Shown here: positions 1-19,282 of the stretch, one piece after another
Numbering within the stretch: the first letter of the stretch is position 1
How the letters are laid out: each line of letters begins with the position of its first letter
Source: a virus
Lineage: Duplodnaviria; Caudoviricetes
Length of the DNA: 64,000 nt
IMG/VR virus record: IMGVR_UViG_3300028887_000067
Location: 244,246-308,245 of that record
Strand: one strand, 5' to 3'
Notes under the pieces: generated by a model
Seen by the model: the letters and a program-made list of their open reading frames with translations, nothing else
Databases searched by the model: none
What the model was told of the DNA's origin: nothing
Translations under genes and position numbers: made by a program

Positions 1-449
1 ACAAGCTGATCAACCTAGAAAGACATTTCGACATTAAACGGGGAAGGAAAACAAGCAGGATGCTTACCGCCTTCTCCAACCCACAAATACGCAATGCGTT
101 GTACATGCGGACAACCGAAGAGTTGGGCGTCCCACTCCAGGAAGTCGATAACGTATGCAATTCGTTGCGGTGTCCAATGGACGGCTGGGTGCATGTAAAG
201 AACAGACCTAAGAAAGGAGTCGTATTCCGCTGCTGCAAATGCGGATACATCGACGATGCGGACAAGGTAGGTGCAATCAACGCCAACCTCCATGCAAATG
301 GTCTGCCCGACTGCAGTCACGCACTCGTATTCACGTGGAAGCTGCATAAGAAGTTCGGATTCTTCTGGACTAATGAAGGCTTCTTCGATGAAAAAGGAAA
401 TCCTATTTCCGTGGTCGGGAGTTCACAGTCCCCGACAGGCCTAAAATAA
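1..449 (+). CDS. tnpB: TnpB/Cas12f-like RNA-guided nuclease, C-terminal part (5' truncated by window edge)
   Basis: Frame open from position 3; INLE (RuvC-II-like), CPMDG...CCKCG zinc ribbon followed by DADKVGAIN (RuvC-III pattern). Confidence 0.75.
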   Translation, partial: KLINLERHFDIKRGRKTSRMLTAFSNPQIRNALYMRTTEELGVPLQEVDNVCNSLRCPMDGWVHVKNRPKKGVVFRCCKCGYIDDADKVGAINANLHANGLPDCSHALVFTWKLHKKFGFFWTNEGFFDEKGNPISVVGSSQSPTGLK

Positions 450-583
450 CTAGAAGCATTTTATATGATTTCTAGTAACTGTAATATATTGCTTTTTTTG
501 CCTTCCGGCCACCCGTTAGACAGGGTATTTTTAGCGAAATATGCAATATATTGCTGTTTTCGGCGAATATTTTAGCTGCATAA

Positions 584-1042
584 CTATCTTGCTTCCGGCC
601 AGAGCGTCCGTATGGCGGTCAACGTCTTGTTGAACGTCTCTATCTTGTCGTCGCCGGTAACGTCGACCATGGCGAGCTTGTTCTCCGTCATTCCGAACTG
701 GTCCATCTGTTTGAACGTCTCAAGATACAGGCCGTTGTACTTCGGCGCGTCGAGGTCGAAATCCGATATCGGCTTCTCCCGTGTTCGGATCCGGCGCATC
801 AGTTCCTCACTATCCGTGTTGACCATAAAGATGACGATTACGTCGTTGTTCTTCAGGTATTCACGGATATTGTTCGTGCGGGTGACCATGTTGATATCGA
901 ACATCATATTCGCCGATATCGTGTCGCGGTCGCGATCCTTGATTTTCACCGGAATGTAATGGCTTTGAAAATACTCGTCCAATGCCTTTATGACGGTGCT
1001 CTTGCCGACTCCGTCAGTACCTTCTATCACTATCGTCTTCAT
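584..1042 (-). CDS. P-loop nucleoside/nucleotide monophosphate kinase (thymidylate-kinase/NadR-kinase-like)
   Basis: N-terminal IVIEGTDGVGKST Walker A; last gene of an overlapping-stop/start operon with pnuC. Confidence 0.7.
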   Translation of the reverse strand: MKTIVIEGTDGVGKSTVIKALDEYFQSHYIPVKIKDRDRDTISANMMFDINMVTRTNNIREYLKNNDVIVIFMVNTDSEELMRRIRTREKPISDFDLDAPKYNGLYLETFKQMDQFGMTENKLAMVDVTGDDKIETFNKTLTAIRTLWPEAR

Positions 1043-1590
1043 ATCTTAGCCTCCTTGTTCCACTTCACCAGCGTGGCTACGGCGAGCGCAGTCCACACTA
1101 TATACAGGCCCAACAAGTACAGAGCCTGGTTCGGGAGCATCCAGAATTCCACGACGTAAGCAATGTCGTTCACGAGCCACACGACCCACGCTTCGACCTT
1201 CCGGAGCGCCATGAGCCAGAGAGCGACGAACGTGGTCACCGTTGTGAATGCGTCGATGAACGGCAACGGGTCGTCTGTGTTGCGCAGGATGACGCTCGCC
1301 ACGGCAACCGCCAATACAGTGAGGACTATTACGGCCGTTGCCTGAATCGCGGTACAGTACCTGATGGCCGACTCGGCGCGTCCCCACTGCCACCACGCGT
1401 ATGCGCATATGCCTACCATTATGCCGTTCTGTACCAGGTCGCCGTACAGGCTGTTCATATACGAGAACGCGATCAGGGCGACAAGCTGGACGATGTAGAC
1501 TATCCAGTTGCACCTCTTGTTCATGAGAACGAGGATTCCCTGGGCAAGCCCGAGTGCCGTAGCCAATATTTCGACCTGTGCCGATGTCAT
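1039..1590 (-). CDS. pnuC: PnuC-family nicotinamide riboside/nucleoside transporter
   Basis: Multi-TM hydrophobic protein with PnuC hallmarks (LYGD, WWQW, PFIDAFTT, EAWVVWLVND). Confidence 0.85.
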   Translation of the reverse strand: MTSAQVEILATALGLAQGILVLMNKRCNWIVYIVQLVALIAFSYMNSLYGDLVQNGIMVGICAYAWWQWGRAESAIRYCTAIQATAVIVLTVLAVAVASVILRNTDDPLPFIDAFTTVTTFVALWLMALRKVEAWVVWLVNDIAYVVEFWMLPNQALYLLGLYIVWTALAVATLVKWNKEAKI

Positions 1591-2135
1591 CTTGCGACTC
1601 CCCTGCTTAATCTATGCAGCTCGTCCAGGCACGCGTCTCGGGCGGCTGTCGCCGACTCGAACTCGTGGAACCTGATTTGCGGGTTGATTGCCTTCGCCTG
1701 TAGGAACGGGTACCAATAAGGATGGTGGATCTGGCCGTCTAGGCCGACCGCAGTCGAGTCTACCTCTGTTTTCCTAATGGACTTTACGTAGTACACGTCG
1801 ATATGTTTCAGCTCCGTCGCGGCGAACACGAGCTCGGCGAGCGTACCCGGCGCGTCCACGCCGTCGGGGAAGACGAGGAATACGTGGGTGGCATCCTTGA
1901 TGGCTTCTATCTCGGCCTCGACCACGTCGGACGGGCCTAAGCCACGCTTGTAGTAATAGAACGGACCGACGTAGTCAACCTCGCCGATGGCGACCGACGG
2001 ACCCTTTTGCTCGATGAACGGGTCGCCGACGAACGAGTACCTGAAATCCTTCTTGATGTTTTCCTCGGAAAACTCGGCGTACTTGAATGAGAACGGTCCG
2101 CCTATGTAGACCCTAGGCCTGTTGTTGCTGTTCAT
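1587..2135 (-). CDS. Nucleoside 2-deoxyribosyltransferase / Rcl-like N-glycosidase
   Basis: VYIGGPF N-terminal motif and DAPGTLAELVFA (GT.xE) motif. Confidence 0.7.
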   Translation of the reverse strand: MNSNNRPRVYIGGPFSFKYAEFSEENIKKDFRYSFVGDPFIEQKGPSVAIGEVDYVGPFYYYKRGLGPSDVVEAEIEAIKDATHVFLVFPDGVDAPGTLAELVFAATELKHIDVYYVKSIRKTEVDSTAVGLDGQIHHPYWYPFLQAKAINPQIRFHEFESATAARDACLDELHRLSRGVAR

Positions 2136-2490
2136 GGTATAGTCCTAACATTTTGAGTGTTGCTTCCATATCGACGTCCGGATAATACTTCTTCCAGGTG
2201 TCGTATGCGTCGAGCGGCTTATCCGGCTTTGTAAATCGGGCGCACTCCCAGTCGAGTGCTGCCTGCACCTTGTCCTTGATGTCGCCGGTGCTCCTGTGAT
2301 AATGGTGGTTTGACCATGCCCGGTGAAGAACCTGTGTCAGGCGCTTGCCGAACAAGATATACATCGGGACCTTGTCGAGGTCGTGAAACGGGAACGAGAA
2401 CCCCTTTTCCTTTGCGAGCTTCTGCAACGCCCTATGATGGTCGAGCGTGTACTTGATTAGCGCGATACGGGACTTCAATGTCTTAATCAT
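2113..2490 (-). CDS. HD-like putative metal-binding protein (DUF5662-like)
   Basis: H..HDLDK, HRAWSNHH, DWE motifs. Confidence 0.5.
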   Translation of the reverse strand: MIKTLKSRIALIKYTLDHHRALQKLAKEKGFSFPFHDLDKVPMYILFGKRLTQVLHRAWSNHHYHRSTGDIKDKVQAALDWECARFTKPDKPLDAYDTWKKYYPDVDMEATLKMLGLYHEQQQQA

Positions 2491-2495
2491 AGCCC

Positions 2496-2537
2496 AAATA
2501 TAGCAATTTGCTGTTTAAACCGATTGATGCTATATTT
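2496..2537. promoter_or_regulatory. Divergent pair of TGCTATATTT extended -10 promoters
   Basis: AAATATAGCA at 2496-2505 (minus) and TGCTATATTT at 2528-2537 (plus) between divergent genes. Confidence 0.7.
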
Positions 2538-2577
2538 AGGCGTGCATTCTTAAACAACCATTATCAATGGAGCTTTT

Positions 2578-3090
2578 ATGTCCGCTTTTGAAACCAAAGG
2601 AATCCTCGTGTCCAAGCAGGACGCCGTAATCAAGGAAACCCGCGTAACCAAGCTGAAATTCAAGATAACCTCTCCGGGATCGGTACGATCCTTCGCCCGT
2701 GCCCTGCAGACCGAATGCAAGGTCGACGGCGTCATCTCGGCGACCGATTCCACCAGCGGAAACTGGTCCTACAAGGTCAACACTAAGGAATACTGCATCT
2801 ACCTCAAGTTCTGCTTCGGTACCGAACTGGAGAACATCACCGAGTTTGACGGCCAGCTCGTCGGCGCGTCATTCTCCCATTCCATGAAGGAAGTCAAGGA
2901 AGAGCTCGTCGAGAAGTCGTCCTGCACCATAGAGATCCTGAAGGAGCGAGACACCGACGCCGACTTCAAGCTTGGCGAATACATCAAACGAACCATCACC
3001 GACGAGAAGACCAACAAGAAGATACTTGTCACGATGGTACTTTCTGCCGACCCGATTCCACAAAACCCGATTATAGGCACGGAAATCTAA
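2578..3090 (+). CDS. hypothetical protein
   Basis: 170 aa ORF, GGAG RBS, downstream of promoter motif. Confidence 0.75.
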   Translation: MSAFETKGILVSKQDAVIKETRVTKLKFKITSPGSVRSFARALQTECKVDGVISATDSTSGNWSYKVNTKEYCIYLKFCFGTELENITEFDGQLVGASFSHSMKEVKEELVEKSSCTIEILKERDTDADFKLGEYIKRTITDEKTNKKILVTMVLSADPIPQNPIIGTEI

Positions 3091-3091
3091 A

Positions 3092-3967
3092 ATGCAAAAA
3101 TTCCTGATATCTTCCGACATAGGCGGTGCAAGCCTTACCAAGGGCGCCCTAGAGTATATTCTCGACCATAATGGCGAAGCCGGCACTGACAACAAGTATT
3201 CGGAATCCAACGGATGCGTGTATAGGGAGTATACCCTTGGGTATACCGGCGCTCGGGAAACATGGCCCAGCCCGCTGTATACGGAATGGTATCAGCTCTA
3301 CAAGGAGCAGACCCCGACCGAATCAGTCCGTCCGTTCAACGAAATTCCACTCGACGCATCGGTCCAACTGCCCACAAGCAACTGCCTGAGAAACTTGTTG
3401 CCGCAGGGAATGACGCAATCCGTGTATGACGCGTACGTCCCGAGCGAATATTTCAGTGAGCTTGACCGGCTCAACGGTGGATGCCGTCTCCGCATCGTCA
3501 CCGTGCCGGAAGGCGCCGACGTGTATATTGTCTCCGATGACGACATGGGATGCGAGCGGGTCGAGGAATTTCACCGTTCTTGGTCTGTACAGCCTGACGA
3601 CGAAATCGCTTTTGTTGAAACGGTAAAGAGACTTTCGTCAGTTTTTGAACATGACCCGATCAAACCGAATCAAGTAGTGGACACCGATGAAATCCAGTTC
3701 GTTCACCGTGGCTGTAAAGGCGACGGCGTCCTCTTCGTGCATAATGGACGCGAGGGCATCGCCGTGTCCAAGAAAACGGGCAAGGTTGCTTTGCTCGTGC
3801 TCGCCGAATATTTCTGTGAGACGGACATACACCCGAAAAGTTGGTTCGAAATTGTCGGCGCGGAAAAGGATCACATCACGTCACAGTACGGAATGCTGTT
3901 CAAAATGAAAGAGATGAAATCATATATGGACTTGTGGACGCTACTCCAGCAACGGCTGAACAAATAG
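3092..3967 (+). CDS. hypothetical protein
   Basis: 291 aa ORF tightly packed in operon. Confidence 0.75.
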   Translation: MQKFLISSDIGGASLTKGALEYILDHNGEAGTDNKYSESNGCVYREYTLGYTGARETWPSPLYTEWYQLYKEQTPTESVRPFNEIPLDASVQLPTSNCLRNLLPQGMTQSVYDAYVPSEYFSELDRLNGGCRLRIVTVPEGADVYIVSDDDMGCERVEEFHRSWSVQPDDEIAFVETVKRLSSVFEHDPIKPNQVVDTDEIQFVHRGCKGDGVLFVHNGREGIAVSKKTGKVALLVLAEYFCETDIHPKSWFEIVGAEKDHITSQYGMLFKMKEMKSYMDLWTLLQQRLNK

Positions 3968-3973
3968 GAGGTT

Positions 3974-4378
3974 ATGGTGCCAGCAAATATGGAAAAATCG
4001 CTACCTGTTGTACAATCGTCGACAGCTGAGCGGGAAGCTAACATCATCAACTATTGTATAAAGTTGCAGAAAAAGATCAAGTATTGCGACACCGCTATGG
4101 CTGTATTGCATGCCTTGATTGTAGTCGACGCGGTGTCGTTATTTTTCTCAATGCTAATATACGCAAGCGCGGATGCCGCTTTGGCCGGCGTTATTTTTGT
4201 GGTATCTCTCAGCCTCGCGCCATTGTTGATACTGGGCATCATTTTCTGTCCTACTCCGAATCCATACGGAACCCAGCTCATGGTAGCGGCAAACAAGTTG
4301 CCGAACAACACGGATGCAATGATGCACTTGAAACGCCGACTCATCGACGAAGCCGAAGACGCCATAAAATGGCATTAA
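3974..4378 (+). CDS. hypothetical membrane protein (2 TM)
   Basis: GGAGG RBS; two hydrophobic segments. Confidence 0.65.
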   Translation: MVPANMEKSLPVVQSSTAEREANIINYCIKLQKKIKYCDTAMAVLHALIVVDAVSLFFSMLIYASADAALAGVIFVVSLSLAPLLILGIIFCPTPNPYGTQLMVAANKLPNNTDAMMHLKRRLIDEAEDAIKWH

Positions 4379-5025
4379 TCGTCCCAGAACTTCTCGATCG
4401 TTCCGACCAGTGCGTATTTACGCAACGCGCTTATGCAGGAATGGTATGACGAGTAGTGGTTCTGCACATTGAGAGCAATGTCCTTCAATGTCGCTCCCGG
4501 ATTCGCCTGCACGTATTCCTTGGCGCGTGCGATGAAACGCGAGAACGAAGTTGACCTGGAGCCGGCCTGTGTGCCGGCTTCAAGCTTTTTGTCCATGTGC
4601 CTGAGTTCGGGAAGCCAGAAATCGAGGTCGCCCGGCAATGGTTCGGCTTTCAGGGCGATTCTTGCGAACCTCTGGGGCGTGTCGTCGAGTATTCCCTGGT
4701 ATTCGCCAACCATTATATAGCCAATCCCCAGTGCGCGGAGCACCTGTCTGGCATCGTTGTTCAGCGTACAAGGACAGGCGACATACACACGTGTGGCTGT
4801 ATCGAGCCACCTGGTCGCTTGCGCAATGACCTTGATGTTCAGCTGTTTCTTGAGCTCGATAGCGATCACCTCGCCGTCGTTGAAGTATACCAGGTCGCAC
4901 GAACCCGATCCGCCGATGCCTACTTCCTCGGCCATCTCCATGCCCTTGAAAAGGTTGGCGTCCTTTATGGCGCGTCCTACCTCTACCTCGCTAATGTCGA
5001 ACTTGAATTGCTTGCGTCGTCTCAT
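4375..5025 (-). CDS. PD-(D/E)XK nuclease-family protein
   Basis: EEV...CDLV...IAIELK...Q motif arrangement. Confidence 0.65.
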   Translation of the reverse strand: MRRRKQFKFDISEVEVGRAIKDANLFKGMEMAEEVGIGGSGSCDLVYFNDGEVIAIELKKQLNIKVIAQATRWLDTATRVYVACPCTLNNDARQVLRALGIGYIMVGEYQGILDDTPQRFARIALKAEPLPGDLDFWLPELRHMDKKLEAGTQAGSRSTSFSRFIARAKEYVQANPGATLKDIALNVQNHYSSYHSCISALRKYALVGTIEKFWDD

Positions 5026-5216
5026 GCCGAAAATATAGCTAAATGTCCATAAAAAGCGAAATCCATCGCGTTTGCGATGGATTGCCCCTTGTGCTTCTCT
5101 TTCCTCGTGTACTTCGATTTTAGCTGTACCACCCTTGTTCGAAGGGTGGCGCCGTTGCTGGTTCCGGCAACCCTCGCCATGCGCTGTCGCGCCGTTTCGG
5201 TAGCTTTCGTCTTCAT
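5022..5216 (-). CDS. small basic protein, candidate ArfA/BrfA-like ribosome rescue factor
   Basis: GAGG RBS; LRTRVVQLKSKYTRKEKHKG basic motif followed by in-gene hairpin and hydrophobic tail. Confidence 0.5.
   Translation of the reverse strand: MKTKATETARQRMARVAGTSNGATLRTRVVQLKSKYTRKEKHKGQSIANAMDFAFYGHLAIFSA
5051..5083 (-). terminator. Intragenic hairpin/terminator inside the ArfA-like ORF
   Basis: 10-bp stem AATCCATCGC-AAAC-GCGATGGATT then TCGCTTTTT on minus strand. Confidence 0.6.
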
Positions 5217-5282
5217 ATTGCTTTCCTCGCGTTGATACAAGTTTAGCAATTTGCTATATTTCGGTCAACCAAAGAGGATCCG

Positions 5283-5765
5283 ATGGACACGAAAGACACA
5301 CTCAAGCTCAGCAACCTGTATAACGCTAAAAACCTGACTACCTTGGTCGGCGACCAACTCAAGGCGCTGAAGACGTACGACCCGCGCAAGTTCGCCCAGG
5401 TAATCGAGAACCAGCTGTGCCTGAACAGCGGAAACATGCCGAAGGCGTTCAAGGACGTGCTCAAGTTCAACGTACCCATACTGCAGTCCGAGCTGAAGCC
5501 TTACGTGTATGAAGATAAGTTCGGCCGTGGCACCGTGCCGACTGACACTTATTTCGTCAAGAGCTGTGGAAAGGTCAGCGCGATTATCAAGATCATCGGC
5601 GGGGAGACCGGCATCGGGACGGTCAGCCCGTCGAAAATACCCGATGACGTGTACGTGTATACGGTCGGGGAAATCAGCGAGAAGGTGGTCGCCACCATCA
5701 AGCTGTTCACCGACGAGATCGAACGTCTCCGCGCCGAGGAACGGGTGAAGAAGGAACAGGATTGA
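5283..5765 (+). CDS. hypothetical protein
   Basis: 160 aa, GAGG RBS, TGCTATATTT at 5252-5261. Confidence 0.75.
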   Translation: MDTKDTLKLSNLYNAKNLTTLVGDQLKALKTYDPRKFAQVIENQLCLNSGNMPKAFKDVLKFNVPILQSELKPYVYEDKFGRGTVPTDTYFVKSCGKVSAIIKIIGGETGIGTVSPSKIPDDVYVYTVGEISEKVVATIKLFTDEIERLRAEERVKKEQD

Positions 5766-6250
5766 TGAGAACCATCGGCTTGTGCGCACTTGCGGCCGTG
5801 CTCGTTGCCATTTCGGTGAAGAACGCATTCCGCGACTTCGTCCGCAAGTGCAACGGCATGATTCGTCTGGTGGCGTGCGCCGGCGGGTCCTATATGTTGT
5901 TAAGGTGCGTCGTGTTTCACGCCGACCCCTATCACTCGGCGATCGTATATGTCGCGTTGAGCGAGACGGAATGTAAATCTGTGATACAGGATATGTGTGA
6001 CAAGTACCCGAAGGTATTCGAATATGATGACATACTCGGCATTAAACGGTCCCGGCTCAAGACAAGCGGGTTTTTTATCTCGCCGAATGCGAAATTGAAG
6101 CAGACGATTCCTGATTGGGACGACTTCAGACATTTCCTAAAAAGCCTCAACAATGTCCCACCCTTCTGGCGCAATCCCGTGCCTGTAGACGACATTATCA
6201 GTGATTTCAAGTCACGATGGAAACAAACTATTATAAAATATGGAACATAA
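5765..6250 (+). CDS. hypothetical protein with N-terminal signal/TM
   Basis: TGATG overlap with upstream gene. Confidence 0.6.
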   Translation: MRTIGLCALAAVLVAISVKNAFRDFVRKCNGMIRLVACAGGSYMLLRCVVFHADPYHSAIVYVALSETECKSVIQDMCDKYPKVFEYDDILGIKRSRLKTSGFFISPNAKLKQTIPDWDDFRHFLKSLNNVPPFWRNPVPVDDIISDFKSRWKQTIIKYGT

Positions 6251-6259
6251 GGAGATCAT

Positions 6260-7651
6260 ATGACAAAGCGCATATCAGAATCCGTAATCGCCAAGGCGAG
6301 ACGTACGATTGGGCACCGCTCGGGCCGCGCCACTTCGGTGAGCCCGCGCCTTCCTAAGCAGTACAAGAAGAAGAACCCGAGCAAGTGGATAATCCACCAC
6401 TTGACCCAGACGGACCTGTACAAGTATTCAATGGGCCAGCTATACTTCCACAAGCACCGCAACGTGCAGGCCCGCTGGGAGTTCAAGCTGCGTTCCAAGG
6501 GGGTCCGTCTCGACCACCTTTACGAGGCGATCAACCTCGAGCTCGACCACCTCTGCACGCTTCGCTACACCATGACTGAACTGAACGGGCTCCGCGTAGT
6601 CGGCCCGTGGCTCGCTGAGGACTTCGTCCGTTACCTGAAACTCGTCCAGCTCAACCGCGAGTACATCCATTGCGAATACGACCCCGATGACGAGTGTGGT
6701 CTCAAGATATGGGCCGAGGGACCGCAGATGGACGTGTTCTGGTTTGAGATTTACTGCCTCCAGATTGTCCAGCACCTCTATTTTGATGACCTTGAGATCG
6801 ACTGGGACGCTTCCAAGGCAGCTCTCGACGAAGCTATCCAAAAGTGGAAGGCCGCCGCCGAACGCGGTATCAAGTTCACCATCTCTGACTTCGGTATCCG
6901 TCGCAGCGTCGACGACAATTGGAACGAGTATATGGTGTCCACCATGTTGAAGGAACTCCCCGGCGTATTTGTCGGCACCTCCAACGTTTACCTCGCAATC
7001 AAGCTGGGATGCAAGGCCATCGGAACTTTCGCCCACGAACTCTACCAGGTTTACCAGGGCCTCGACTACATCAACCTCCGCATGTTCCAGGTTGCCGTGT
7101 TCGAGGACTGGATGCACGAGTTCGGCGGTGACCTCGGTATCGCTCTCTCCGACATCGTCGGCTTCAAGGCATTCCTCGCCGACTTCGGTGGCGACGACCC
7201 GCGTGGCAAGCTCTACGCTAAGGTGTTCGACGGATGCCGTCACGATTCCGGCGACCCGTACACGTGGGGAGAGATGCTAATTGCGCATTACCGGAAGTTG
7301 AAGATTCTGCCCGAGACTAAGATCGGCTGCTGGAGCGACTCCCTCAACGTCGACAAGTCCATCGCCATCGCGGAACACTTCAATCTCCGCATCAAGATCG
7401 CTTTCGGAATCGGCCAGTTCCTCTGCGCGAGCCTCTTGAAATTCAAGAACAATACGGACAACCGCAAGCCGCTTTCCATGGTGATGAAGGTCGTCATGAT
7501 CAAGGCGCACGACAAGGCCCCGTGGGTATGGGTCGTCAAGCTGTCCGACTCGGTCGGAAAGACGATGTGCCCCGACCAGGAGCGCATCGACCTGATCAAG
7601 CGTACGTTCAACTACAGTTCGATTGACGACGACCCCCCGAGCTGCCAATAA
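6260..7651 (+). CDS. pncB: Nicotinate phosphoribosyltransferase
   Basis: TDLYKYSM, DFGIRR, GTSNV, GTFAHE (phospho-His), GCRHDSGDP, SDSL, FGIG, KLSD..GK motifs. Confidence 0.93.
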   Translation: MTKRISESVIAKARRTIGHRSGRATSVSPRLPKQYKKKNPSKWIIHHLTQTDLYKYSMGQLYFHKHRNVQARWEFKLRSKGVRLDHLYEAINLELDHLCTLRYTMTELNGLRVVGPWLAEDFVRYLKLVQLNREYIHCEYDPDDECGLKIWAEGPQMDVFWFEIYCLQIVQHLYFDDLEIDWDASKAALDEAIQKWKAAAERGIKFTISDFGIRRSVDDNWNEYMVSTMLKELPGVFVGTSNVYLAIKLGCKAIGTFAHELYQVYQGLDYINLRMFQVAVFEDWMHEFGGDLGIALSDIVGFKAFLADFGGDDPRGKLYAKVFDGCRHDSGDPYTWGEMLIAHYRKLKILPETKIGCWSDSLNVDKSIAIAEHFNLRIKIAFGIGQFLCASLLKFKNNTDNRKPLSMVMKVVMIKAHDKAPWVWVVKLSDSVGKTMCPDQERIDLIKRTFNYSSIDDDPPSCQ

Positions 7652-7708
7652 CTTGTTAACCAAAGAATCCAGTTGCCACGCGACTGGATTCTTTGCTATA
7701 TTTTTCGC

Positions 7709-8836
7709 ATGGCATCCATTACATTTATTTATGGCGGCGCGTTTGACCCGATTACCATCGGTCACGAGAGCATCATCTACAACTTGACGCTTTACATCGA
7801 CTCCATCATCGGAAAAGACAAATTTGATAGTGTCCACCGGATTATCGCCGTGACGGCGAACGACGAGAAGAGCTATCACTTATCGCTGAAGCATCGCATG
7901 GAGATGGTTCAAATCGCCATCCCGGAGGCGCTGGGGTGGAAAGTTGTCGAGCAGGAAACCCGCATGGCGGATTTCGTACGGAACCTGCGCAAAGAACAGC
8001 AGACCCCCGAAGATAGCATACCCGGTCCCTTGTTCGTCATTGCCCTCGGTTACGATGAATGGGAAGACTTGAAACATAACAAGTGGGTCGACTCCGATTT
8101 CCTCTTGCACAATTGCTCGTTCATCGTCGTGGATCGCCCTGATGTGCATAGCAAGTATACCCGTCAAGACGAGACCGGTTACTCGGTCACGCATGTTAAA
8201 TGGGGCGTGCCCTGCGTATCCTCGACACAGGTCAGAAACGATATGCGGAATACTCCGCTGTATGCCGGCAAGGACGTATCCATTCCCGTTTCGATGTACC
8301 TCCGCGGCCACCACCTGCTCGGCCAGACTACGGCGGTCGAGTACGAGGAGATAGAGAACGAAGGAATCAATTCCTATAACCCGAAAGACTTCCCGAAGCC
8401 GTCGGTCACGGCCACCACCCTTATTATGTTTAAGGATCGTGTGCTTCTTGTTCGGAGGAAGAATTTTCCCGACCACGACATGTGGTGCTTTCCGGGAGGC
8501 TTCGCCAACCCGCACGAGAATATCGAGACGGTCGGGGCTCGCGAGGTGTTCGAAGAGACCCAGATTTCCATACCAGAGGACAAAATCATCCAGCTCGGCG
8601 TGTTCACTCCCGACGACCCGCGCATCTGGAAGTTCGAAAAGTTCTGGTCGTACGACGTTGCCCTTTGGGCGGACGTGTCGTTCCATCAAAACACTAACTT
8701 ACTTGAGCCGAGGGCGGCCGACGACGCCAAGGACGCCTGCTGGTTCCCTATAAAGGAAGTCAGGGGCATGCAGTTGGCGTTCCACCACAACAAGATTCTC
8801 GAGAAGTTCTTATCCACACATCCCGGTTACGTTTAA
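7709..8836 (+). CDS. NadD-like nicotinate/nicotinamide-nucleotide adenylyltransferase fused to Nudix (ADP-ribose pyrophosphatase-like) hydrolase
   Basis: GGAFDPITIGH, LGYD..W, VSSTQVR; C-terminal PGGF....E.....AREVFEET Nudix box and AADDA. Confidence 0.85.
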   Translation: MASITFIYGGAFDPITIGHESIIYNLTLYIDSIIGKDKFDSVHRIIAVTANDEKSYHLSLKHRMEMVQIAIPEALGWKVVEQETRMADFVRNLRKEQQTPEDSIPGPLFVIALGYDEWEDLKHNKWVDSDFLLHNCSFIVVDRPDVHSKYTRQDETGYSVTHVKWGVPCVSSTQVRNDMRNTPLYAGKDVSIPVSMYLRGHHLLGQTTAVEYEEIENEGINSYNPKDFPKPSVTATTLIMFKDRVLLVRRKNFPDHDMWCFPGGFANPHENIETVGAREVFEETQISIPEDKIIQLGVFTPDDPRIWKFEKFWSYDVALWADVSFHQNTNLLEPRAADDAKDACWFPIKEVRGMQLAFHHNKILEKFLSTHPGYV

Positions 8837-8866
8837 ACCGGCATACAGCCAAAAGGAAAAACAACC

Positions 8867-9493
8867 ATGATTCAGAAAGATTCCTACGATTTCCTCGAAG
8901 TCACCGACTGGCAGGGCGACTTCAACGATGGTGCCCTCAAGAATGACGCCGCTATCGCGAAGGAAGATGCAGTCATCGCCGAAATCGACAACTTCGAAGG
9001 CGATGTCCTAATTGCAACCCGCGATACCCATGACAAGGACACATACGGCGATTCCGTCGAAGGACAGAACCTCCCGATTCACTGCGTAAGGGGCACTCCC
9101 GGCTGGGAAATCACCCCCCGTGTACAGGAAGCTCTCGATCGGGCGAAGGCCGCCGGAAAGACGGTCAAGTATGTCGACAAGTCGACATTCGGTTTCCTCG
9201 GCTGGCCGAAGGTACTGTTCGATATCGACAGCACCGACCAGGAAGCCGTACACGCGCTTCTCCGTGGCAAGAAGATCCGCATCCGCATCATCGGTACCTG
9301 TTCCAACATCTGCAACATGAGCGCTGCCGTAATCCAACGCGCCTGGTTCCCGATGGCCGATATTGAATTTGTCGATGGCGCATCCGCACCTTCCGGCCTT
9401 ACGTCTAAGGAAGTTGAGGATAACCAGAAAGCCGCGTTGACCATCGCGGCAAGTATGCTCTGTAAGGTTGTCCCCACGGTCTACAAGGGTTAA
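8867..9493 (+). CDS. pncA: Nicotinamidase (isochorismatase family)
   Basis: DWQGDF, TRDTH, HCVRGTPGW, DKSTFG, GTCSNIC catalytic D-K-C; adjacent to pncB. Confidence 0.85.
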   Translation: MIQKDSYDFLEVTDWQGDFNDGALKNDAAIAKEDAVIAEIDNFEGDVLIATRDTHDKDTYGDSVEGQNLPIHCVRGTPGWEITPRVQEALDRAKAAGKTVKYVDKSTFGFLGWPKVLFDIDSTDQEAVHALLRGKKIRIRIIGTCSNICNMSAAVIQRAWFPMADIEFVDGASAPSGLTSKEVEDNQKAALTIAASMLCKVVPTVYKG

Positions 9494-9496
9494 GAT

Positions 9497-10300
9497 ATGC
9501 CGGGCAAAGACGTAGTTCAGTTTACGCAGATAAGCGACATCCACCTCGGCGGGGATTACAAAGGATTTTTCCCCGTAGAGGAAAACTTCAAGCAGGTTCT
9601 CGACTGGGCGCCGGCGGACTCCTACCTCATTATCACGGGAGACCTTGCCGACAACAACCACCGCGAACACTACGAGCGCATCAAGCGTGACGTCGAGGCT
9701 AAGTTCAATGACCGGTACTCGGTCTTGCCGGGAAACCACGACGACGTAAATGTACTGAACGAAGTCTTTGCCGGCCATACGAGCTCCTTTGTATACAGGG
9801 GTGTCCCGGTGTCTCTAATCCCGACTATATGGGACGAGTCCGCAGGGAGCGAGTTCGGCGTAGGGATGGATTTCTTTGACGACTACGATATGTTGCCCGG
9901 TTCGATAGTGTTCACCCACTACCCCGTGTTCGACACGTCGCACAAGTTCATGAACAAGCACGCGCTGTCCCAGCCAGGAAAGCAACGCATCCGTAACCTG
10001 ATGGAAAAAACGAAGTCCTCCTTGCTGTTCTGTGGCCATTTTCACGATTGTTGCAAGTCAGAAATCACCAACACGGTAACTGAAACGCACGATATGGGTC
10101 ATACCGAGGTCAGGAACGGGACTGAATTTGTCCAGTACATCTGTCCCGCGACGCAGTGCCAGATCGACCCGTTGTCGGATATGTTCGTATGTTCGAGCAA
10201 GAAACCGAACGGGTTTACCATAAACGTCTATGTCGACACGCCGACTCCGCAATCCGTTATACGCCGTTCCGATGTCGGCGTCCGTCGTTTCGTAATTTGA
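9497..10300 (+). CDS. Calcineurin-like metallophosphoesterase (CpdA/Icc-like)
   Basis: SDIH, TGDL, GNHD, THYP, GHFH motifs. Confidence 0.85.
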   Translation: MPGKDVVQFTQISDIHLGGDYKGFFPVEENFKQVLDWAPADSYLIITGDLADNNHREHYERIKRDVEAKFNDRYSVLPGNHDDVNVLNEVFAGHTSSFVYRGVPVSLIPTIWDESAGSEFGVGMDFFDDYDMLPGSIVFTHYPVFDTSHKFMNKHALSQPGKQRIRNLMEKTKSSLLFCGHFHDCCKSEITNTVTETHDMGHTEVRNGTEFVQYICPATQCQIDPLSDMFVCSSKKPNGFTINVYVDTPTPQSVIRRSDVGVRRFVI

Positions 10301-10305
10301 ACGCC

Positions 10306-10767
10306 ATGATGAATAATCCGCTTATCGAAAATGAAATCTATGAGCTTCCACGATATCCCCATACGGAGGCCGTATTCATTGTTCCTAAAGACGGGATGTA
10401 CGAGATAACCAAATTCAATACGTTTAGGCTAGAAAATGACCAAAAACCAGTCTTGGTCGACAGCCTCTACGACGCATGTTGTCTTGTAACAGAGTATCTA
10501 AATTTCATTGCGCGTGAATTTCTTCATCCGCATACCGAGTTGTACGACTATTCCGGAAAACAGGTGTACTTCATACGGAATGCGCAATATGCGCTGGTTC
10601 CTGACTTCAATAAGGATGGCGGATGGCGGGTGTTCGACTTTGTCGGGCTGAACACGATTTCGTTCAATACATATACCGAAGCGAAGGACGCGCTAAATAC
10701 GCTGATGAGTGTTGTCTCTCGGAAAGACGACGTGTTCGTCGCCGCTCCGGGATGTTCTTTGAAATGA
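10306..10767 (+). CDS. hypothetical protein
   Basis: ORF following phosphoesterase; start chosen at MMNN. Confidence 0.6.
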   Translation: MMNNPLIENEIYELPRYPHTEAVFIVPKDGMYEITKFNTFRLENDQKPVLVDSLYDACCLVTEYLNFIAREFLHPHTELYDYSGKQVYFIRNAQYALVPDFNKDGGWRVFDFVGLNTISFNTYTEAKDALNTLMSVVSRKDDVFVAAPGCSLK

Positions 10768-10777
10768 AGAGGATGCA

Positions 10778-11074
10778 ATGAGTAGCCCGCATGTATGTTC
10801 TAAGATTTCCTACGTGGTTATTAGCGCACAAGTCAAGGAGTTCCTCTGGTTCGGTACAACCTATCACGGCGTCGGGCTCGACTCGCTGAGCGCATATTCT
10901 GACCTTATGACGTGCTTGACCGACTTCGACAAACGTCATGCCGATTACCGAATAAAGGTAATGTATATTGATACAGTGGGTAAGGCGAGAACCTTATGGC
11001 GTACTCGGCCGATGACGTTCGACTTTATTAAACGTCTTGCTACCGAAAACTGGAGCAAGAAGGACCACAATTGA
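10778..11074 (+). CDS. hypothetical protein
   Basis: GAGG RBS, 98 aa. Confidence 0.6.
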   Translation: MSSPHVCSKISYVVISAQVKEFLWFGTTYHGVGLDSLSAYSDLMTCLTDFDKRHADYRIKVMYIDTVGKARTLWRTRPMTFDFIKRLATENWSKKDHN

Positions 11075-11430
11075 AATTCTCTCCGATAAAAGATGATTCC
11101 ATTGGATTCAAGCACGTCAACGGTGTCTATTTCGCCGGCTCTCTGCAACAGAAGCTCTGTACCGACCTGGTCGACATATCCGAGGTCGACATCGATCTTT
11201 TCAAGGTATTGATAAATGGCGGCAACGGCATAAACGGTCTCTCCGTCGAGGTGGAAGGATTTGATGGAGACGCCGTTCTGTATGCGTGGAAATCCAACCG
11301 AGGCGTAGTAATGATTTGCAATCCCGGATTCGAGGCTTTGTGGTTCCGTGGATTCATCGTCGACAAGTCCGACAAGGATGCAGTTGAATACGCGTCGAAA
11401 TGTTTCGAGGAAAAGAGACAAATTTTGTAA
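11071..11430 (+). CDS. hypothetical protein
   Basis: overlapping TTG start with AAGGA RBS. Confidence 0.55.
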   Translation: MKFSPIKDDSIGFKHVNGVYFAGSLQQKLCTDLVDISEVDIDLFKVLINGGNGINGLSVEVEGFDGDAVLYAWKSNRGVVMICNPGFEALWFRGFIVDKSDKDAVEYASKCFEEKRQIL

Positions 11431-11440
11431 TTGCAAAAAG

Positions 11441-11470
11441 TTGTCATCAAAATTTTAATATGCTATATTT
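11441..11470 (+). promoter_or_regulatory. sigma70-type promoter
   Basis: TTGTCA-17nt-TATATT within TGCTATATTT. Confidence 0.7.
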
Positions 11471-11485
11471 AGGCGCGAGGTTAGT

Positions 11486-12406
11486 ATGAGCTGGACAGAC
11501 TTGACTAAAAGACTGAAGGACATTGGCATCCATACAGCAGCGGACGGCGTCGGAAATTATGGGTTTTCGTATAACGGGTATCACCTCGGCGGATATACAG
11601 ATGGCGACCCGTATGTCACGTTCGCTACCGACTGGAAACGCAACGACAATGACAAATACTCGTTCGCATCCCCTGAATACATCATGTCCGTCGATACGAA
11701 GAAATACAAGTGCGCCGATTTCGACAAACTCTCGGACGACGAGGTAATCAACATTATTACCGATTCGCTCAAGCTCTTGAAAGCGAAGTACCCGCAAGTC
11801 GACCGCATCCCGCAGACATTAAACGGCCCCATACGGTCGTCCCGCTTCATCGTTTTCGAAGGCATCGACAATTCCGGTAAGACGACCGTGTCCAAGCGGG
11901 TCGCCGAAATGATGCCGTGGTTCACTTGGACGAAGGAGCCGGCTTTCTCTACCGAGGAGGCCGACCGGCTGAATTCCGACGAGTTCAAGGGCAAGGACGC
12001 CAAACGCGAGGTGTTCTTCCTCGAATCCCGATTGAAGCAGCAGTTGCTGTACAGATCCTCTCCCTGTCTGCTAGACAGGTATCTATGGACTGGCATCGCC
12101 TACGTGAAGGCGTTCTCCCCGTCGATATACGAATTCTGCGCCGAGCTGTACACCAACCATAACATTTTCATGAAGCCCGACCTCGTGTTCTTCATGGAAA
12201 CCTCGATCGATAAATGTTACGACCGGGAACCGAAACTGAAGAAAGAGCCCGGACGCCTCGAACGTATCCGCCGGGCATACAGCGACACCGAGAATCTCGT
12301 TTCTTCCCCCATTGTCTACATCGATGGCAACATGGGAATCGAGGAATGTGCGAAATTCTGCGCCGACGAGATAGTCAGGCGCTTTCCCGACCAGGAAATT
12401 TTCTAA
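11486..12406 (+). CDS. tmk: Thymidylate (dTMP) kinase with extra ~115 aa N-terminal domain
   Basis: FIVFEGIDNSGKTT, TKEP, LDRY, KPDL motifs. Confidence 0.8.
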   Translation: MSWTDLTKRLKDIGIHTAADGVGNYGFSYNGYHLGGYTDGDPYVTFATDWKRNDNDKYSFASPEYIMSVDTKKYKCADFDKLSDDEVINIITDSLKLLKAKYPQVDRIPQTLNGPIRSSRFIVFEGIDNSGKTTVSKRVAEMMPWFTWTKEPAFSTEEADRLNSDEFKGKDAKREVFFLESRLKQQLLYRSSPCLLDRYLWTGIAYVKAFSPSIYEFCAELYTNHNIFMKPDLVFFMETSIDKCYDREPKLKKEPGRLERIRRAYSDTENLVSSPIVYIDGNMGIEECAKFCADEIVRRFPDQEIF

Positions 12407-12444
12407 ATTAACCTACAACAACCACAAACAAAAGGACGTCTAAC

Positions 12445-12771
12445 ATGAAAAAGACTGATCTGATTACCAATTCCACCCCTTCCGCTTGCGGTTGCGGTGC
12501 AAGCTGCAAGGCTTCCTGCGCCTGCAAGTGCCACGCAGCCAGCAAGGTTGCCAAGCTCGCCGACGCTAAGAAGGCCGCCGCTTCCAACCTCAAGACGCTC
12601 CGTGACGCCGCCAAGGCCTCTGCAAAGAGCCACAGCGCCGTCGCCAAGAGCTTCAAGGAAAGCCAGAAGGGTCTCAACAAGGCCAACAAGGCCGTTGCCA
12701 AGGCCAAGGCCGTCTACGAGCAGGCATCCCGCCGTCTCGCCGAAGCCAAGGCAAACCTCAAGACTAAGTAA
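12445..12771 (+). CDS. Lys/Ala-rich histone-like protein with Cys-rich N-terminus
   Basis: CGCGASCKASCACKCH followed by K/A-rich helix; AAAGGA RBS. Confidence 0.65.
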   Translation: MKKTDLITNSTPSACGCGASCKASCACKCHAASKVAKLADAKKAAASNLKTLRDAAKASAKSHSAVAKSFKESQKGLNKANKAVAKAKAVYEQASRRLAEAKANLKTK

Positions 12772-12789
12772 TCCTCCAGTTGATGGGAG

Positions 12790-12815
12790 GGGCGGCCTCA
12801 CGGCCGCCCTTTCTT
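12790..12815 (+). terminator. Rho-independent terminator
   Basis: GGGCGGCC-TCAC-GGCCGCCC-TTTCTT. Confidence 0.8.
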
Positions 12816-12819
12816 GTTT

Positions 12820-13209
12820 CTAAGCCATCTTTCCGTGGCACATGAAGAACGCCTCGGTAAGCACCTTCCTCAATTTCAGGTCAACTTGCATCACGGATTC
12901 CTGGAACGCGCCGGGGGGCAACTGCTCGTAAGACCACGAACCGGACATATCGTCCTTGATGTGCTCGGATACGGTTTCCAATCCAGCAGTCACGGTATCG
13001 CCCATCCGGTTGGACTTGTATACGAATCGTTGCTCGCCGTCCTGAACGTCTCCGTACCCGACCTCCCCGAAAACCTCGTCATACGGGTCGATCAGCTCGA
13101 CCGTGTCCCCCTTGTCGCGGGTACGCAGGCCGGTGCCCTTCACCATCGCGTTCACCGCGTCGTGCAGGGCGGAACTAAGCTTGACGTTGACGATTTCGGG
13201 ACGTGGCAT
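12820..13209 (-). CDS. hypothetical protein
   Basis: GGAG RBS before ATG 13209. Confidence 0.65.
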   Translation of the reverse strand: MPRPEIVNVKLSSALHDAVNAMVKGTGLRTRDKGDTVELIDPYDEVFGEVGYGDVQDGEQRFVYKSNRMGDTVTAGLETVSEHIKDDMSGSWSYEQLPPGAFQESVMQVDLKLRKVLTEAFFMCHGKMA

Positions 13210-13267
13210 GTTGTTTCTCCGTTGATTCAGATGTAGTTTATCGTCGGGAGGCATAAACTTACCTCAT

Positions 13268-13732
13268 ATGAGCAAGATTGACGAAAAACATCCCATCGTG
13301 GAAGGCCTTGACGCGCCGAACTGCCTTTCGTTCGGCCGTGGATACGGGGAGACCGCTTCCCCGTTCGGCGTGGACGCCACCACGAGGTACAACTCGTTCG
13401 TCACGCGCACCGACCCGTACACTGGCCGTACGAACCCGGTTCTCGCCAGGGTTGCCGGATTCGAGGCGAACAACGCGGGAAAGTACAGGCCCGACCCAAA
13501 TCCAGAACTTGACGAGTTCGTCGATACACTTTTCCTCGACGACATGGGCCCCGAGGGCAGCTTCATCAACGGCGAGAACACGTACAAGGTGATAGAGAGC
13601 ATCCCGTCACGCGAAGTCGCTTCCGCCCCGCAGATGCCGGCTCCGAAGAAAGTCGACGACGTAAATGAAAAGGAAGCCATCGACGACGGCTTCCTGGACT
13701 TCGCTTCAATGTTCGGTTCGGCTAGAAATTGA
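13268..13732 (+). CDS. hypothetical acidic protein
   Basis: 154 aa ORF. Confidence 0.65.
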   Translation: MSKIDEKHPIVEGLDAPNCLSFGRGYGETASPFGVDATTRYNSFVTRTDPYTGRTNPVLARVAGFEANNAGKYRPDPNPELDEFVDTLFLDDMGPEGSFINGENTYKVIESIPSREVASAPQMPAPKKVDDVNEKEAIDDGFLDFASMFGSARN

Positions 13733-14075
13733 CGCCGCAGTCGGAATTGTTGAACTCGCGGTTGATAAAATCCATCCCCTCGGAATTGCTGGTGTTGCCG
13801 CGTTCCTCGTCCCACGGTAGACAGCGCGGGCCGTTGTTGGACACGGTTCCCGGTTCCATCACGTACCCGTTAGCTATCATGTCGTAGCGTCCGTCGGCGT
13901 ATCGCACGGCGGTCATCTCGTGGTCCGTGGTCGGGGCCGCCTCGACTATTTTCAATGTCCCGAAATGCGGTTCCGGGCGAGGAGGGGGGCACGCCATCCC
14001 CGGATAGTGGGACGGGTGCCTGAGGTCCGGATGTTCCGGACCTGGGCCAAAGAACGGGTTGAACGGCGGTTTCAT
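13722..14075 (-). CDS. Pro-rich hypothetical protein
   Basis: GGAGG RBS; operon with 14079-14966. Confidence 0.6.
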   Translation of the reverse strand: MKPPFNPFFGPGPEHPDLRHPSHYPGMACPPPRPEPHFGTLKIVEAAPTTDHEMTAVRYADGRYDMIANGYVMEPGTVSNNGPRCLPWDEERGNTSNSEGMDFINREFNNSDCGVNF

Positions 14076-14078
14076 AGA

Positions 14079-14459
14079 TTACCTCCCGTAACACCTGAAC
14101 GGGATGCACCCGTTGGGCGGATAGGCCATGTAGAAAGGCATATACGGGCCGTACGCGTGATGGGGCATGGGCGGGCGCCACGGGCCACCGCAACGGCCGC
14201 ACGGATTCGGGTACTGTATCGATGGTACGTACTCCCAAGGACCCTTCTGCGGGGCAGGGAACGAGCAACAGCTGAAGTCGGGCACGGGCGGCTGGTTCGG
14301 GATAAACAGGACGGGACCGCAGGGGGCGCAACTCCTGGTGAAGAAGGCCGGCGACTGGCCGATGTGCGGATGTACGCAACAACCCCCGTAATTCGGCGGG
14401 GGTACCGGCGTCGGGCGCGGCATAGGCTGTACGTAGTTTCTCTGGCAGGCGCAGCTCAT
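14079..14459 (-). CDS. Pro/Cys/Tyr-rich hypothetical protein
   Basis: GGAGG RBS; very high Pro and Cys content. Confidence 0.55.
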   Translation of the reverse strand: MSCACQRNYVQPMPRPTPVPPPNYGGCCVHPHIGQSPAFFTRSCAPCGPVLFIPNQPPVPDFSCCSFPAPQKGPWEYVPSIQYPNPCGRCGGPWRPPMPHHAYGPYMPFYMAYPPNGCIPFRCYGR

Positions 14460-14462
14460 AGG

Positions 14463-14966
14463 CTACCTCCCGGACATTGACGTCCTTCTGCTAATGGTTC
14501 GGCGGGACTTCCTGGCCGGAGCGTTGGGCATCCGGAGAACCTGCGTGTGTATCTCGTGTATGTAGGAATTGCCGCCCAAGTCGGAATAGACCTTGTACAT
14601 CTTCTCGAAATTCTCCCGGTCGTAGTCGCCGATGTAACCCTTCTCGATCGCGTTGTTGTAGATTGCGGTGAGGTCGTTGCGCGTTGACGCTATTGTCGCT
14701 TCCTTCATTAGCGCCTGTTCTTTCCGGTCGTTGTCGAACTTGACTTCGAGGTCCTGTTTCAGGACGGTCACGAAGTTGTTGATGTTGGCGACGTCGGCCT
14801 CGATCTTGGTGACACGGGTGTTGAAGTCAACGGACTTGTTTAGACGTTGAACCACCCATCTGCGCAGAGGACTTACAAAGCCCACGACGGCGGCGGATAA
14901 CGATGTCATCGCAATGATAAGGCCCGAAACAAGTTGGATATAATCGGTCAGCGTACTAAGTTCCAT
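14463..14966 (-). CDS. Holin-like membrane protein
   Basis: N-terminal TM, coiled coil, Y..Y..LGGN motif seen in phage holin-associated proteins. Confidence 0.5.
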   Translation of the reverse strand: MELSTLTDYIQLVSGLIIAMTSLSAAVVGFVSPLRRWVVQRLNKSVDFNTRVTKIEADVANINNFVTVLKQDLEVKFDNDRKEQALMKEATIASTRNDLTAIYNNAIEKGYIGDYDRENFEKMYKVYSDLGGNSYIHEIHTQVLRMPNAPARKSRRTISRRTSMSGR

Positions 14967-15024
14967 GTTCAGCGATTCCTATGTTACACCAGTTAAGTTT
15001 ATAGCAGGCGGGACCCATTTCCCA

Positions 15025-15053
15025 TTGACAAACGGGGGTCTGAAAACTATATT
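15025..15053 (+). promoter_or_regulatory. sigma70-type promoter
   Basis: TTGACA-17nt-TATATT. Confidence 0.8.
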
Positions 15054-15090
15054 TTTATTATTATTTTTCATCCACCAACAGAGGTCAATT

Positions 15091-15564
15091 ATGGTATACA
15101 TCGAACAGCACATGGACATCCGCAACTTTATCGACGGGGACGACGTAGTGGTCGCCCACTGCATAGCTGCTGACCTCAACTGGGGAAGCGGTGTCGCCCC
15201 GATAATCAACCGGGAAATGTTCGACGCGGAGGACGCCTGCCGTTACCGCTGTTCCACGAACGCCATCGGGGTGCCGACCCCACTGCGCGTGGGCGAGTGC
15301 CTGCCGGTCAAGACGTACAAGCATCACGCAACGCTCGTCAACCTCATCACCAAGCTCCGTTCCCAGTACAAGCCGACTTACGAGAGCCTCACCGAGTCAC
15401 TGGTGTCCCTCCGCTCGTACATGCAGGTGAACGGCAAGAACATCCTCTATATGCCCAAGATCGGTTGCGGTATCGACATGCTCCACTGGGACGTAGTGAG
15501 CAACATCATCAAGGGCGTGTTCAACGGAACCGATGTCAAGATAACCATCGCCATCAAGGACTAA
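15091..15564 (+). CDS. Macrodomain protein (Poa1p/TARG-like ADP-ribose processing)
   Basis: AHCIAADLNWGSGVA, NLITK, MPKIGCGID.L.W motifs. Confidence 0.85.
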   Translation: MVYIEQHMDIRNFIDGDDVVVAHCIAADLNWGSGVAPIINREMFDAEDACRYRCSTNAIGVPTPLRVGECLPVKTYKHHATLVNLITKLRSQYKPTYESLTESLVSLRSYMQVNGKNILYMPKIGCGIDMLHWDVVSNIIKGVFNGTDVKITIAIKD

Positions 15565-15566
15565 CC

Positions 15567-16616
15567 ATGAAATATCCAGCAATTATAAACCGCCTACACG
15601 AACGCGTACGCAAGATTGTCGCCTCGGTCATCCCGAATAAGGCCAAGGACGACGACACGAAGTCGAACAACGAGCTTCCGCAAGATCTACACTCGAGGAT
15701 GAAGCGGTACGAGTCTTACTTCACGGGCAAGCAGACCAAGGATATCCTTCCAAACTTCCCGCATCGGAACGCGGTCGTCATACCCGCAGGCTGGCCCATT
15801 GGGCTCGACGGCTATACCACGATCCCCGAAGGGTTCTACCCCGTAATCCGTGTCGACGGGCACAAGTTCAGCACATTCACGAAACAGTTCGACAAGCCTT
15901 TCGACAAACGCGTCACAGATGCGATGATCGCCGCCACCAAGGCCATCGTTGACAATTTCCAGGGCATCATCGGCTATACCCAGTCCGACGAGATCACCCT
16001 CGTCCTTCCCAAGCATTCTGAGATGTTCGGGCGCCAGTGCCAGAAACTCGCGTCACTCGCCGCCTCGTGCGCTGCGGTGCATTTCTACGACTCCCTCATC
16101 AAGTCCGGCTACGGGGCGGGAAAGTCCGTCGTGAAGATGCCGGAGTTTGACGGTCGCACGTTCGGCATTCCCGACGACTCCGAACTCGCCAATATGTTCG
16201 TATGGCGCGAACGCGACGCTATCCGTAACTCTATCAGCGCCGTCGCCCGCCGTTTTTTCAGCGACAAGTCCCTGCTCGGTATCAACAGCACAGAGAAGCT
16301 TGCCAAGCTCTCTGAAAAAGGTGTCGACTTCTGGAATATGTACCCGCCGTGCTGCACCAGGGGAGCGTACTTCAAGCGCGTCGAGATCGACCGCAATTTC
16401 AATGTGGAAGACCTCGAGAAACTACCCCCGAAGCACCACGCCCGTACCAACCCGGAAGAGTTCTTCGCCCGTCACCCGACCTGCACCGTCGTGCAGGAGA
16501 TGAAGTTCCCGGTGATATCCACGATTGCCAACCTTCCGGACGTCCTTATCAACAACGCCACGCCCGTACGGAAGGATGAGGCCGGCAACCCGCTTAAATC
16601 GGTAGACGAGGCGTAA
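15567..16616 (+). CDS. tRNA(His) guanylyltransferase Thg1-like protein (3'-5' polymerase)
   Basis: RMKRYE, IRVDGHKFSTFT, GYTQSDEITL, KLASL, FDGR, WRE.DA.RNS motifs. Confidence 0.9.
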   Translation: MKYPAIINRLHERVRKIVASVIPNKAKDDDTKSNNELPQDLHSRMKRYESYFTGKQTKDILPNFPHRNAVVIPAGWPIGLDGYTTIPEGFYPVIRVDGHKFSTFTKQFDKPFDKRVTDAMIAATKAIVDNFQGIIGYTQSDEITLVLPKHSEMFGRQCQKLASLAASCAAVHFYDSLIKSGYGAGKSVVKMPEFDGRTFGIPDDSELANMFVWRERDAIRNSISAVARRFFSDKSLLGINSTEKLAKLSEKGVDFWNMYPPCCTRGAYFKRVEIDRNFNVEDLEKLPPKHHARTNPEEFFARHPTCTVVQEMKFPVISTIANLPDVLINNATPVRKDEAGNPLKSVDEA

Positions 16617-16617
16617 C

Positions 16618-17046: not shown

Positions 17047-17049
17047 TAG

Positions 17050-19165: not shown

Positions 19166-19185
19166 TTTGCCTCGCTTTTGGGCTA

Positions 19186-19260
19186 AATATAGAAGAAACT
19201 ATTAAAAATGTCAATACTTCTCGGAAAACTCTTGACGGGCACCCAGTTTAAATGTATATT
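19186..19260. promoter_or_regulatory. Divergent sigma70-type promoters
   Basis: minus: TTGACA(19214-19209)-17-TATATT(19191-19186); plus: TTGACG(19232)-17-TATATT(19255). Confidence 0.75.
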
Positions 19261-19282
19261 GCGTACAAAACACGAGGACACA

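Follow-up and report, generated by a model that had tools for sequence, protein, structure and literature searches.

The window analyzed here forms the final 64 kb of a virus record that is 308 kb long and 81% complete. A sequence-only reading of this DNA had described a 64-aa basic ORF with a distinctive core, and both were recovered. The ORF listing and translation place 64 codons at 5216–5022 on the minus strand, and residues 1–45 of the product have a pI of 11.7 and contain 13 K/R. Residues 46–64 contain no K/R and have a GRAVY of +0.98. Upstream lies a predicted sigma70-type promoter (TTGACC-17-TAAACT, 5240–5268, minus strand, 9/12 match, TG-extended), and homologues carry similar elements at this place. 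The ATG is preceded at 7 nt by a Shine-Dalgarno-like GAGGA (5224–5228, minus strand), whose counterpart in host copies of the gene is AAGGAG(G). Codons 1–44 (5085–5216, minus strand) form a conserved basic core with a synonymous divergence of 0.51 at conserved residues. The core comprises a predicted helix at residues 9–18 (E7, R12, R15), an NG motif, L25-R-T-R-V-V, and the basic C-terminal motif Y36-x-R-K-x-K41-H42. K41-H42 is near-invariant among close relatives and absent from some distant host copies. The AlphaFold model predicted the N-terminal helix at low overall confidence (pTM 0.34).

The core is followed, within the coding sequence, by an in-frame 10-bp RNA hairpin with five G-C pairs and a variable 4-nt loop (codons 45–53, 5060–5083, minus strand). 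Its folding z-score was −3.0, equalled by 1 of 200 shuffles, and it occurs once in the 308-kb genome. The hairpin reported earlier is real, and its covariation and frozen synonymous sites exceed chance. A U-rich tract, TTTCGCTTTTT (5050–5062, minus strand), lies behind it. The T-run noted before is thus present, but as an interrupted rather than continuous run, whereas most intergenic terminators of the same phage have uninterrupted ones; most copies of the gene have 5–6 T in 10 nt. Termination strength at this site is uncertain, and the interruption may make termination leaky. Other terminator-like hairpins of the phage number 38 between genes versus 5 inside sense ORFs. The predicted mRNA 3′ end falls near 5052–5050, past codon F55 and with no stop codon. 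Such an mRNA would yield a stop-less product of about 55 residues, matching active E. coli ArfA in size. Codons 56–64 (5022–5051, minus strand) form an unconserved read-through tail; it closes with the first stop, whose overlap with the following start codon reads ATGA. The hydrophobic tail of the sequence-only reading holds for residues 46–64 of the phage copy, and its MDFAF is encoded by the 3′ arm of the hairpin and the T-run. Conservation of a hydrophobic tail was rejected: family tails have a mean GRAVY of 0.19, with 58% positive, and are random in length and sequence.

Homologue searches returned 18 close homologues and about 120 remoter ones. They fall into two classes, those with the core, a hairpin-encoded peptide and an arbitrary tail, and short forms ending soon past the basic motif. 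Named family members are Fibrobacter proteins, and 58 of 58 genome matches were to Fibrobacter or Fibrobacterales. The gene was present in 101 of 151 Fibrobacteraceae genomes, nearly always as a single copy, and in 38 of 151 genomes sampled across the phylum. The gene is thus not confined to phages but is a standard chromosomal gene of Fibrobacteraceae. The nearest relatives of the phage gene itself were on large viral or unbinned contigs. In a tree of 114 columns with the hairpin left out, host copies stood apart from most non-host copies; this tree does not give the direction of transfer. Because of the family distribution and a phage-type copy beside Thg1 that was binned in a Fibrobacter MAG (G004:C23), we infer that Fibrobacter is the phage host. 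Spacers from CRISPR arrays of the 151 Fibrobacteraceae genomes gave no convincing match to window positions 1–20000. Another contig of the same MAG (G004:C105) carries a 67%-identical NAPRTase stretch. Campylobacter phages and others encode short proteins related to the C-terminal motif, and these end at ordinary stops.

The tail was said to overlap the promoter of the next gene (4375–5025, minus strand), and as a prediction this stands. A predicted extended −10 element, GCTATATT (5032–5039, minus strand), has its TATATT at 5037–5032, with 6 nt separating it from the ATG at 5025. The same element precedes an ATG by 6–7 nt in 24 of 35 non-host copies. The next gene probably lacks a leader. Compared with close relatives, its promoter has lost 12 nt in length, which puts the −35 region on the U-tract. 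Its product matches phrog_12193 with faint NucS/VRR-NUC similarity. In hosts, the upstream gene is divergent in 64 of 66 cases and the downstream gene is variable, being convergent in 40 of 62. The host gene stands alone with changing neighbors.

These data bear on the possibility that the ORF is a leader peptide or attenuator, in which translation across the hairpin governs read-through into the next gene. The ATGA overlap, present in this gene and in 7 of the 35 non-host copies, and the frequent presence of Thg1 downstream would fit it. However, downstream genes of the family fall into 40 clusters and are mostly convergent in hosts, the downstream genes of phages have their own promoter element, and none of 71 host copies shows the overlap. 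Coupling of translation to the next gene is not conserved. We consider a leader or attenuator very improbable because the host gene stands alone and its downstream gene is variable and mostly convergent.

Several other genes of the phage give context. A Thg1 domain (15819–16172, plus strand) lies 10.6 kb from the gene in this window and is the direct downstream neighbor in many relatives, with direct adjacency at 14 non-host loci that belong to related phages and are not independent. The head domain of a CCA-adding/poly(A) polymerase (18695–19078, minus strand) provides context only; the Thg1 and CCA-type enzymes lie 10–14 kb from the gene. An NAD-salvage cluster (1039–1590 and 6260–9493) contains an NAPRTase by Pfam; judged by eye, it also has a transporter resembling PnuC, a fusion of nucleotidyltransferase and Nudix, and a nicotinamidase-like gene. 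Searches of the 81%-complete phage genome found only two tRNA genes, both tRNA-Ala and outside the window (25–268 of the record), and no phage tmRNA.

The sequence-only reading had proposed a built-in non-stop switch, which homologues lacking the hairpin would have spoken against. The hairpin was present in 110 of 120 distinct DNA copies, and 109 of these 110 had no stop ahead of the hairpin end. The sole copy with an earlier stop is a host copy in which an insertion interrupts the hairpin and supplies the stop codon (L100:4109-4200). The distance from hairpin to stop varied between 3 and more than 300 codons, with a median of 24. In one copy (L117:1600 onward), the read-through frame stays open for 329 codons and enters Thg1 in frame. 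Among the 10 copies without a called hairpin, 8 viral or metagenome copies had ordinary stops, a single host copy had a mismatch in its stem, and the last was cut by a contig end.

Stem pairing was retained in 98% of cells across 25 distinct stems, a value matched by 0 of 500 shuffles, while slid controls reached 38–47%; relatedness inflates these covariation tests, and the stem changes nonetheless lie on separate branches of the hairpin-free tree. One stem position was found as A-U, C-G, U-A, U-G, and G-C, and G-U pairs are tolerated at four positions. Synonymous divergence among non-host copies was 0.00 for the stem codons, compared with about 0.4 for the loop and 0.51 for the core. As an independent test, we also examined 14 extra copies from host genomes, the majority of them divergent. 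In 13 of the 14, the basic motif was immediately followed by a stop-free hairpin and T-run, and among these hairpins were at least five sequence types unrelated to that of the phage. Because the hairpin sequence is wholly replaced in distant hosts, what is conserved is hairpin position and structure, not sequence or peptide. The in-gene hairpin and the protein core are both under selection. Absent stops, covariation, frozen synonymous sites, and hairpins of replaced sequence together strongly support the built-in non-stop design at the level of comparative sequence analysis.

This evidence also weighs on two further explanations of the hairpin. It could be a weak or reverse-strand terminator that sits at the gene end by chance, with most mRNA reading through to give a full-length protein with a junk tail and no tmRNA control. 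The interrupted U-tract and the convergent next gene in 40 of 62 cases in hosts speak for this explanation. On this view a stop before the hairpin would do no harm, yet 109 of 110 copies have none, and the same holds where the hairpin sequences are unrelated; moreover, the hairpin is retained with the gene even where the neighbor is on the same strand. We regard a chance terminator as improbable. Alternatively, the palindrome could be a DNA operator or repeat, or the encoded peptide could be the conserved feature, as near-identity of the sequence among phage copies might suggest. The tolerated G-U pairs, the single genome copy, and the complete replacement of both sequence and encoded peptide in distant hosts make this hardly credible. 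A genome-wide repeat or operator was rejected on the same grounds of single copy and replaced sequence.

The relation of the product to known rescue factors was less direct. Neither the protein nor any of 64 relatives matched ArfA (PF03889) at the curated cut-off, and Pfam, NCBIfam, and PDB sequence searches gave no ArfA or BrfA match. PHROGs returned unnamed families only, and the ESM Atlas returned unnamed clusters, with DUF7230 in 10% of one. HHalign of the query family against a 14-sequence ArfA alignment gave a probability of 11% and an E-value of 0.003 over 19 K/R-rich columns, exceeding 60 of 60 column shuffles. The alignment pairs L25-R-T-R-V with ArfA F25-R26-Q-R28-V29, and Y36-x-R-K-x-K41-H42 with ArfA Y39-x-R41-x-x-K44-H45 across a three-residue gap. 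This gap falls on the K-G-K-G-S-Y segment of ArfA, which is absent here. ArfA residues 25–29, to which L-R-x-R-V aligns, contact RF2 in ArfA structures.

A second line of evidence runs through DUF7230 (PF23876), a family of small basic phage proteins for which our literature search found no paper naming it. Via DUF7230-like marine proteins, which match both the ArfA and DUF7230 Pfam models, HHalign gave 97% to the family and 98% to ArfA, with the bridging set itself having been found by similarity to the query. The phage protein scored 16.8 bits against DUF7230, below the cut-off of 27, and 40 of 64 family members matched it weakly (best E 1e-5). DUF7230 shares the C-terminal motif and the same gap relative to ArfA. 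It differs in its N-terminus, and the DUF7230 proteins whose gene ends were examined have ordinary stops. One protein of Pseudoalteromonas phage J2-1 (L216:483-638) exceeds both the ArfA and DUF7230 Pfam cut-offs, and this double match suggests that DUF7230 is an ArfA-related family. The proposed likeness to ArfA is thus upheld weakly and transitively, and membership in Pfam ArfA is not. On this sequence comparison, the gene product is probably a distant ArfA relative that, by the same searches, falls outside PF03889 and BrfA.

Compared with ArfA (YhdL) of E. coli and beta/gammaproteobacteria, the family shares a small basic protein, an in-gene stem-loop before the stop, the aligned L/F-R-x-R-V and Y-x-R-K-x-K-H motifs, a truncated product (predicted here) of about 55 aa, and a poorly conserved tail (PMC8012679). 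In contrast, it falls below Pfam detection, lacks the three-residue GKG segment, has a different N-terminus (predicted helix and NG motif), and has a short hairpin of 10–12 bp with a U-tract. It is also found in Fibrobacterota, while arfA was present in 0 of 1,956 FCB genomes surveyed (PMC11633108).

Kinship with BrfA, also put forward earlier, was not detected. HHalign against BrfA gave 0.3%, equalled by 23 of 50 shuffles; the query was identical to PDB 6SZS chain y, and its alignment was shallow and confined to the B. subtilis group. There is thus no sequence homology above shuffled controls, but the two share an intrinsic terminator within the ORF and a charged N-terminal helix (both predicted for the present gene), a K-H motif, and a spacing of 13 residues from a conserved Arg to K-H (BrfA is YqkK of Bacillus subtilis, PMC6881298). 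Cross-compatibility of ArfA and BrfA is poor (PMC6881298). The 64-aa protein has neither the GGQ motif nor the RF-1 domain of ArfB (YaeJ), and no Pfam or NCBIfam match pointed to Francisella ArfT.

ArfA-type genes are already annotated in phages, namely pelagiphage HTVC027P gp30 (PMC12753301), Pseudoalteromonas phage J2-1, and Citromicrobium phage vB_CbaS-RXM. Unlike the present family, these are Pfam-level ArfA proteins with GKG and mostly ordinary stops, known by annotation only, and the literature gave no functional test of them or account of non-stop control. The annotated arfA of vB_CbaS-RXM (OL963731, L217:483-665) is above the Pfam cut-off, and its ORF contains, ahead of the stop, a G+C-rich hairpin and pyrimidine run, so that this cultured phage probably has the non-stop design. 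Phages Arash, pf16, RsoM2USA, and CRP-212 carry ArfA-like ORFs that end in ordinary stops; these lack an annotation or are misnamed, in one case as ribosomal protein L2. Literature searches found no report of this Fibrobacter/phage family.

Host rescue machinery was surveyed in five genomes of Fibrobacter, the presumed host. All five encode tmRNA, SmpB, RF1, and RF2, and Pfam ArfA and NFACT had no match in them. A third RF-1-domain match, a short GGQ protein, was also found in all five. In G004 (L170:1441-1932), this protein is 163 aa long and combines part of an RF-1 domain with the GGQ motif. It is possibly an ArfB-like peptidyl-tRNA hydrolase acting as a back-up.

We put at roughly two in three the probability that the gene encodes, by analogy with arfA and brfA, a tmRNA-repressed, release-factor-recruiting, divergent ArfA-type back-up rescue factor of Fibrobacteraceae and their large phages. 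This reading is favored because the hairpin-bearing genes lack stops, the stem covaries, and the design and product size match arfA and brfA. It is tempered because no library ArfA match was obtained, GKG and the ArfA-type N-terminus are missing, the U-tract is interrupted, and the short GGQ protein of the hosts could be an ArfB-like back-up. In the proposed mechanism, the transcript would end at the in-gene hairpin and U-tract, either because it terminates intrinsically or because its 3′ end is trimmed as far as the hairpin, and ribosomes would stall at its stop-less end. With tmRNA-SmpB to spare, the product would be tagged for degradation. An overload of trans-translation would let the protein of roughly 55 residues escape. 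Its basic Y-x-R-K-x-K-H end would then enter the mRNA channel left empty in stalled ribosomes, and the bound protein would recruit a release factor of the host (by analogy, RF2). The end of the transcript, the tagging, the binding to ribosomes, the recruitment of a release factor, and the benefit to infection are all inferred steps. The first of them, a transcript ending at the hairpin, has strong comparative support; the later ones would follow by analogy with ArfA and BrfA (PMC8012679, PMC6881298). A complex prediction of the protein with Fibrobacter RF2 scored 0.05, which weighs neither way.

Alternatively, the non-stop switch could be real and the protein could do something else, for instance blocking the mRNA channel so that ribosomes are parked or inhibited, or serving as an RNA-binding regulator when translation is under stress. 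The similarity to ArfA is confined to 19 basic C-terminal columns, nothing in ArfA corresponds to the N-terminal helix or the NG motif, and many phage relatives are constitutive, all of which would suit such a role. Against it stands the alignment of L-R-x-R-V with the RF2-contacting residues of ArfA. In addition, the only known genes of this design are release-factor-recruiting rescue factors (PMC8012679). We judge a different function unlikely, if still worth keeping in mind.

The earlier suggestion that the gene protects the phage against translation-targeting defenses is a conjecture. It fits a role proposed for jumbo-phage Thg1, CCA enzymes, and Pth2 (PMC7824862), and the adjacency of Thg1 in relatives is suggestive in this regard. 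The surprise of a phage rescue gene is limited, as phage arfA genes are already annotated in GenBank. ArfA and BrfA have nonetheless been thought narrow in distribution (Proteobacteria and the B. subtilis group), and reviews foresee small rescue factors missed by similarity searches (PMC8012679, PMC11633108). As a tentative and rather doubtful extension, the family may be the first rescue factor in the FCB group that recruits a release factor, and a branch of a wider ArfA-DUF7230 superfamily. Its phages would then keep a host-type tmRNA-sensing switch to free ribosomes jammed by translation-targeting defenses, and other phage lineages would have swapped in an ordinary stop for constitutive expression.

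Herein, our analysis provides a concrete, synthesizable 55-residue rescue-factor candidate for Fibrobacteraceae, and the family suggests a function for DUF7230. Related viruses with both gene designs, the switch kept or replaced by an ordinary stop, offer a natural pair for the question of sensing versus bypassing host trans-translation.
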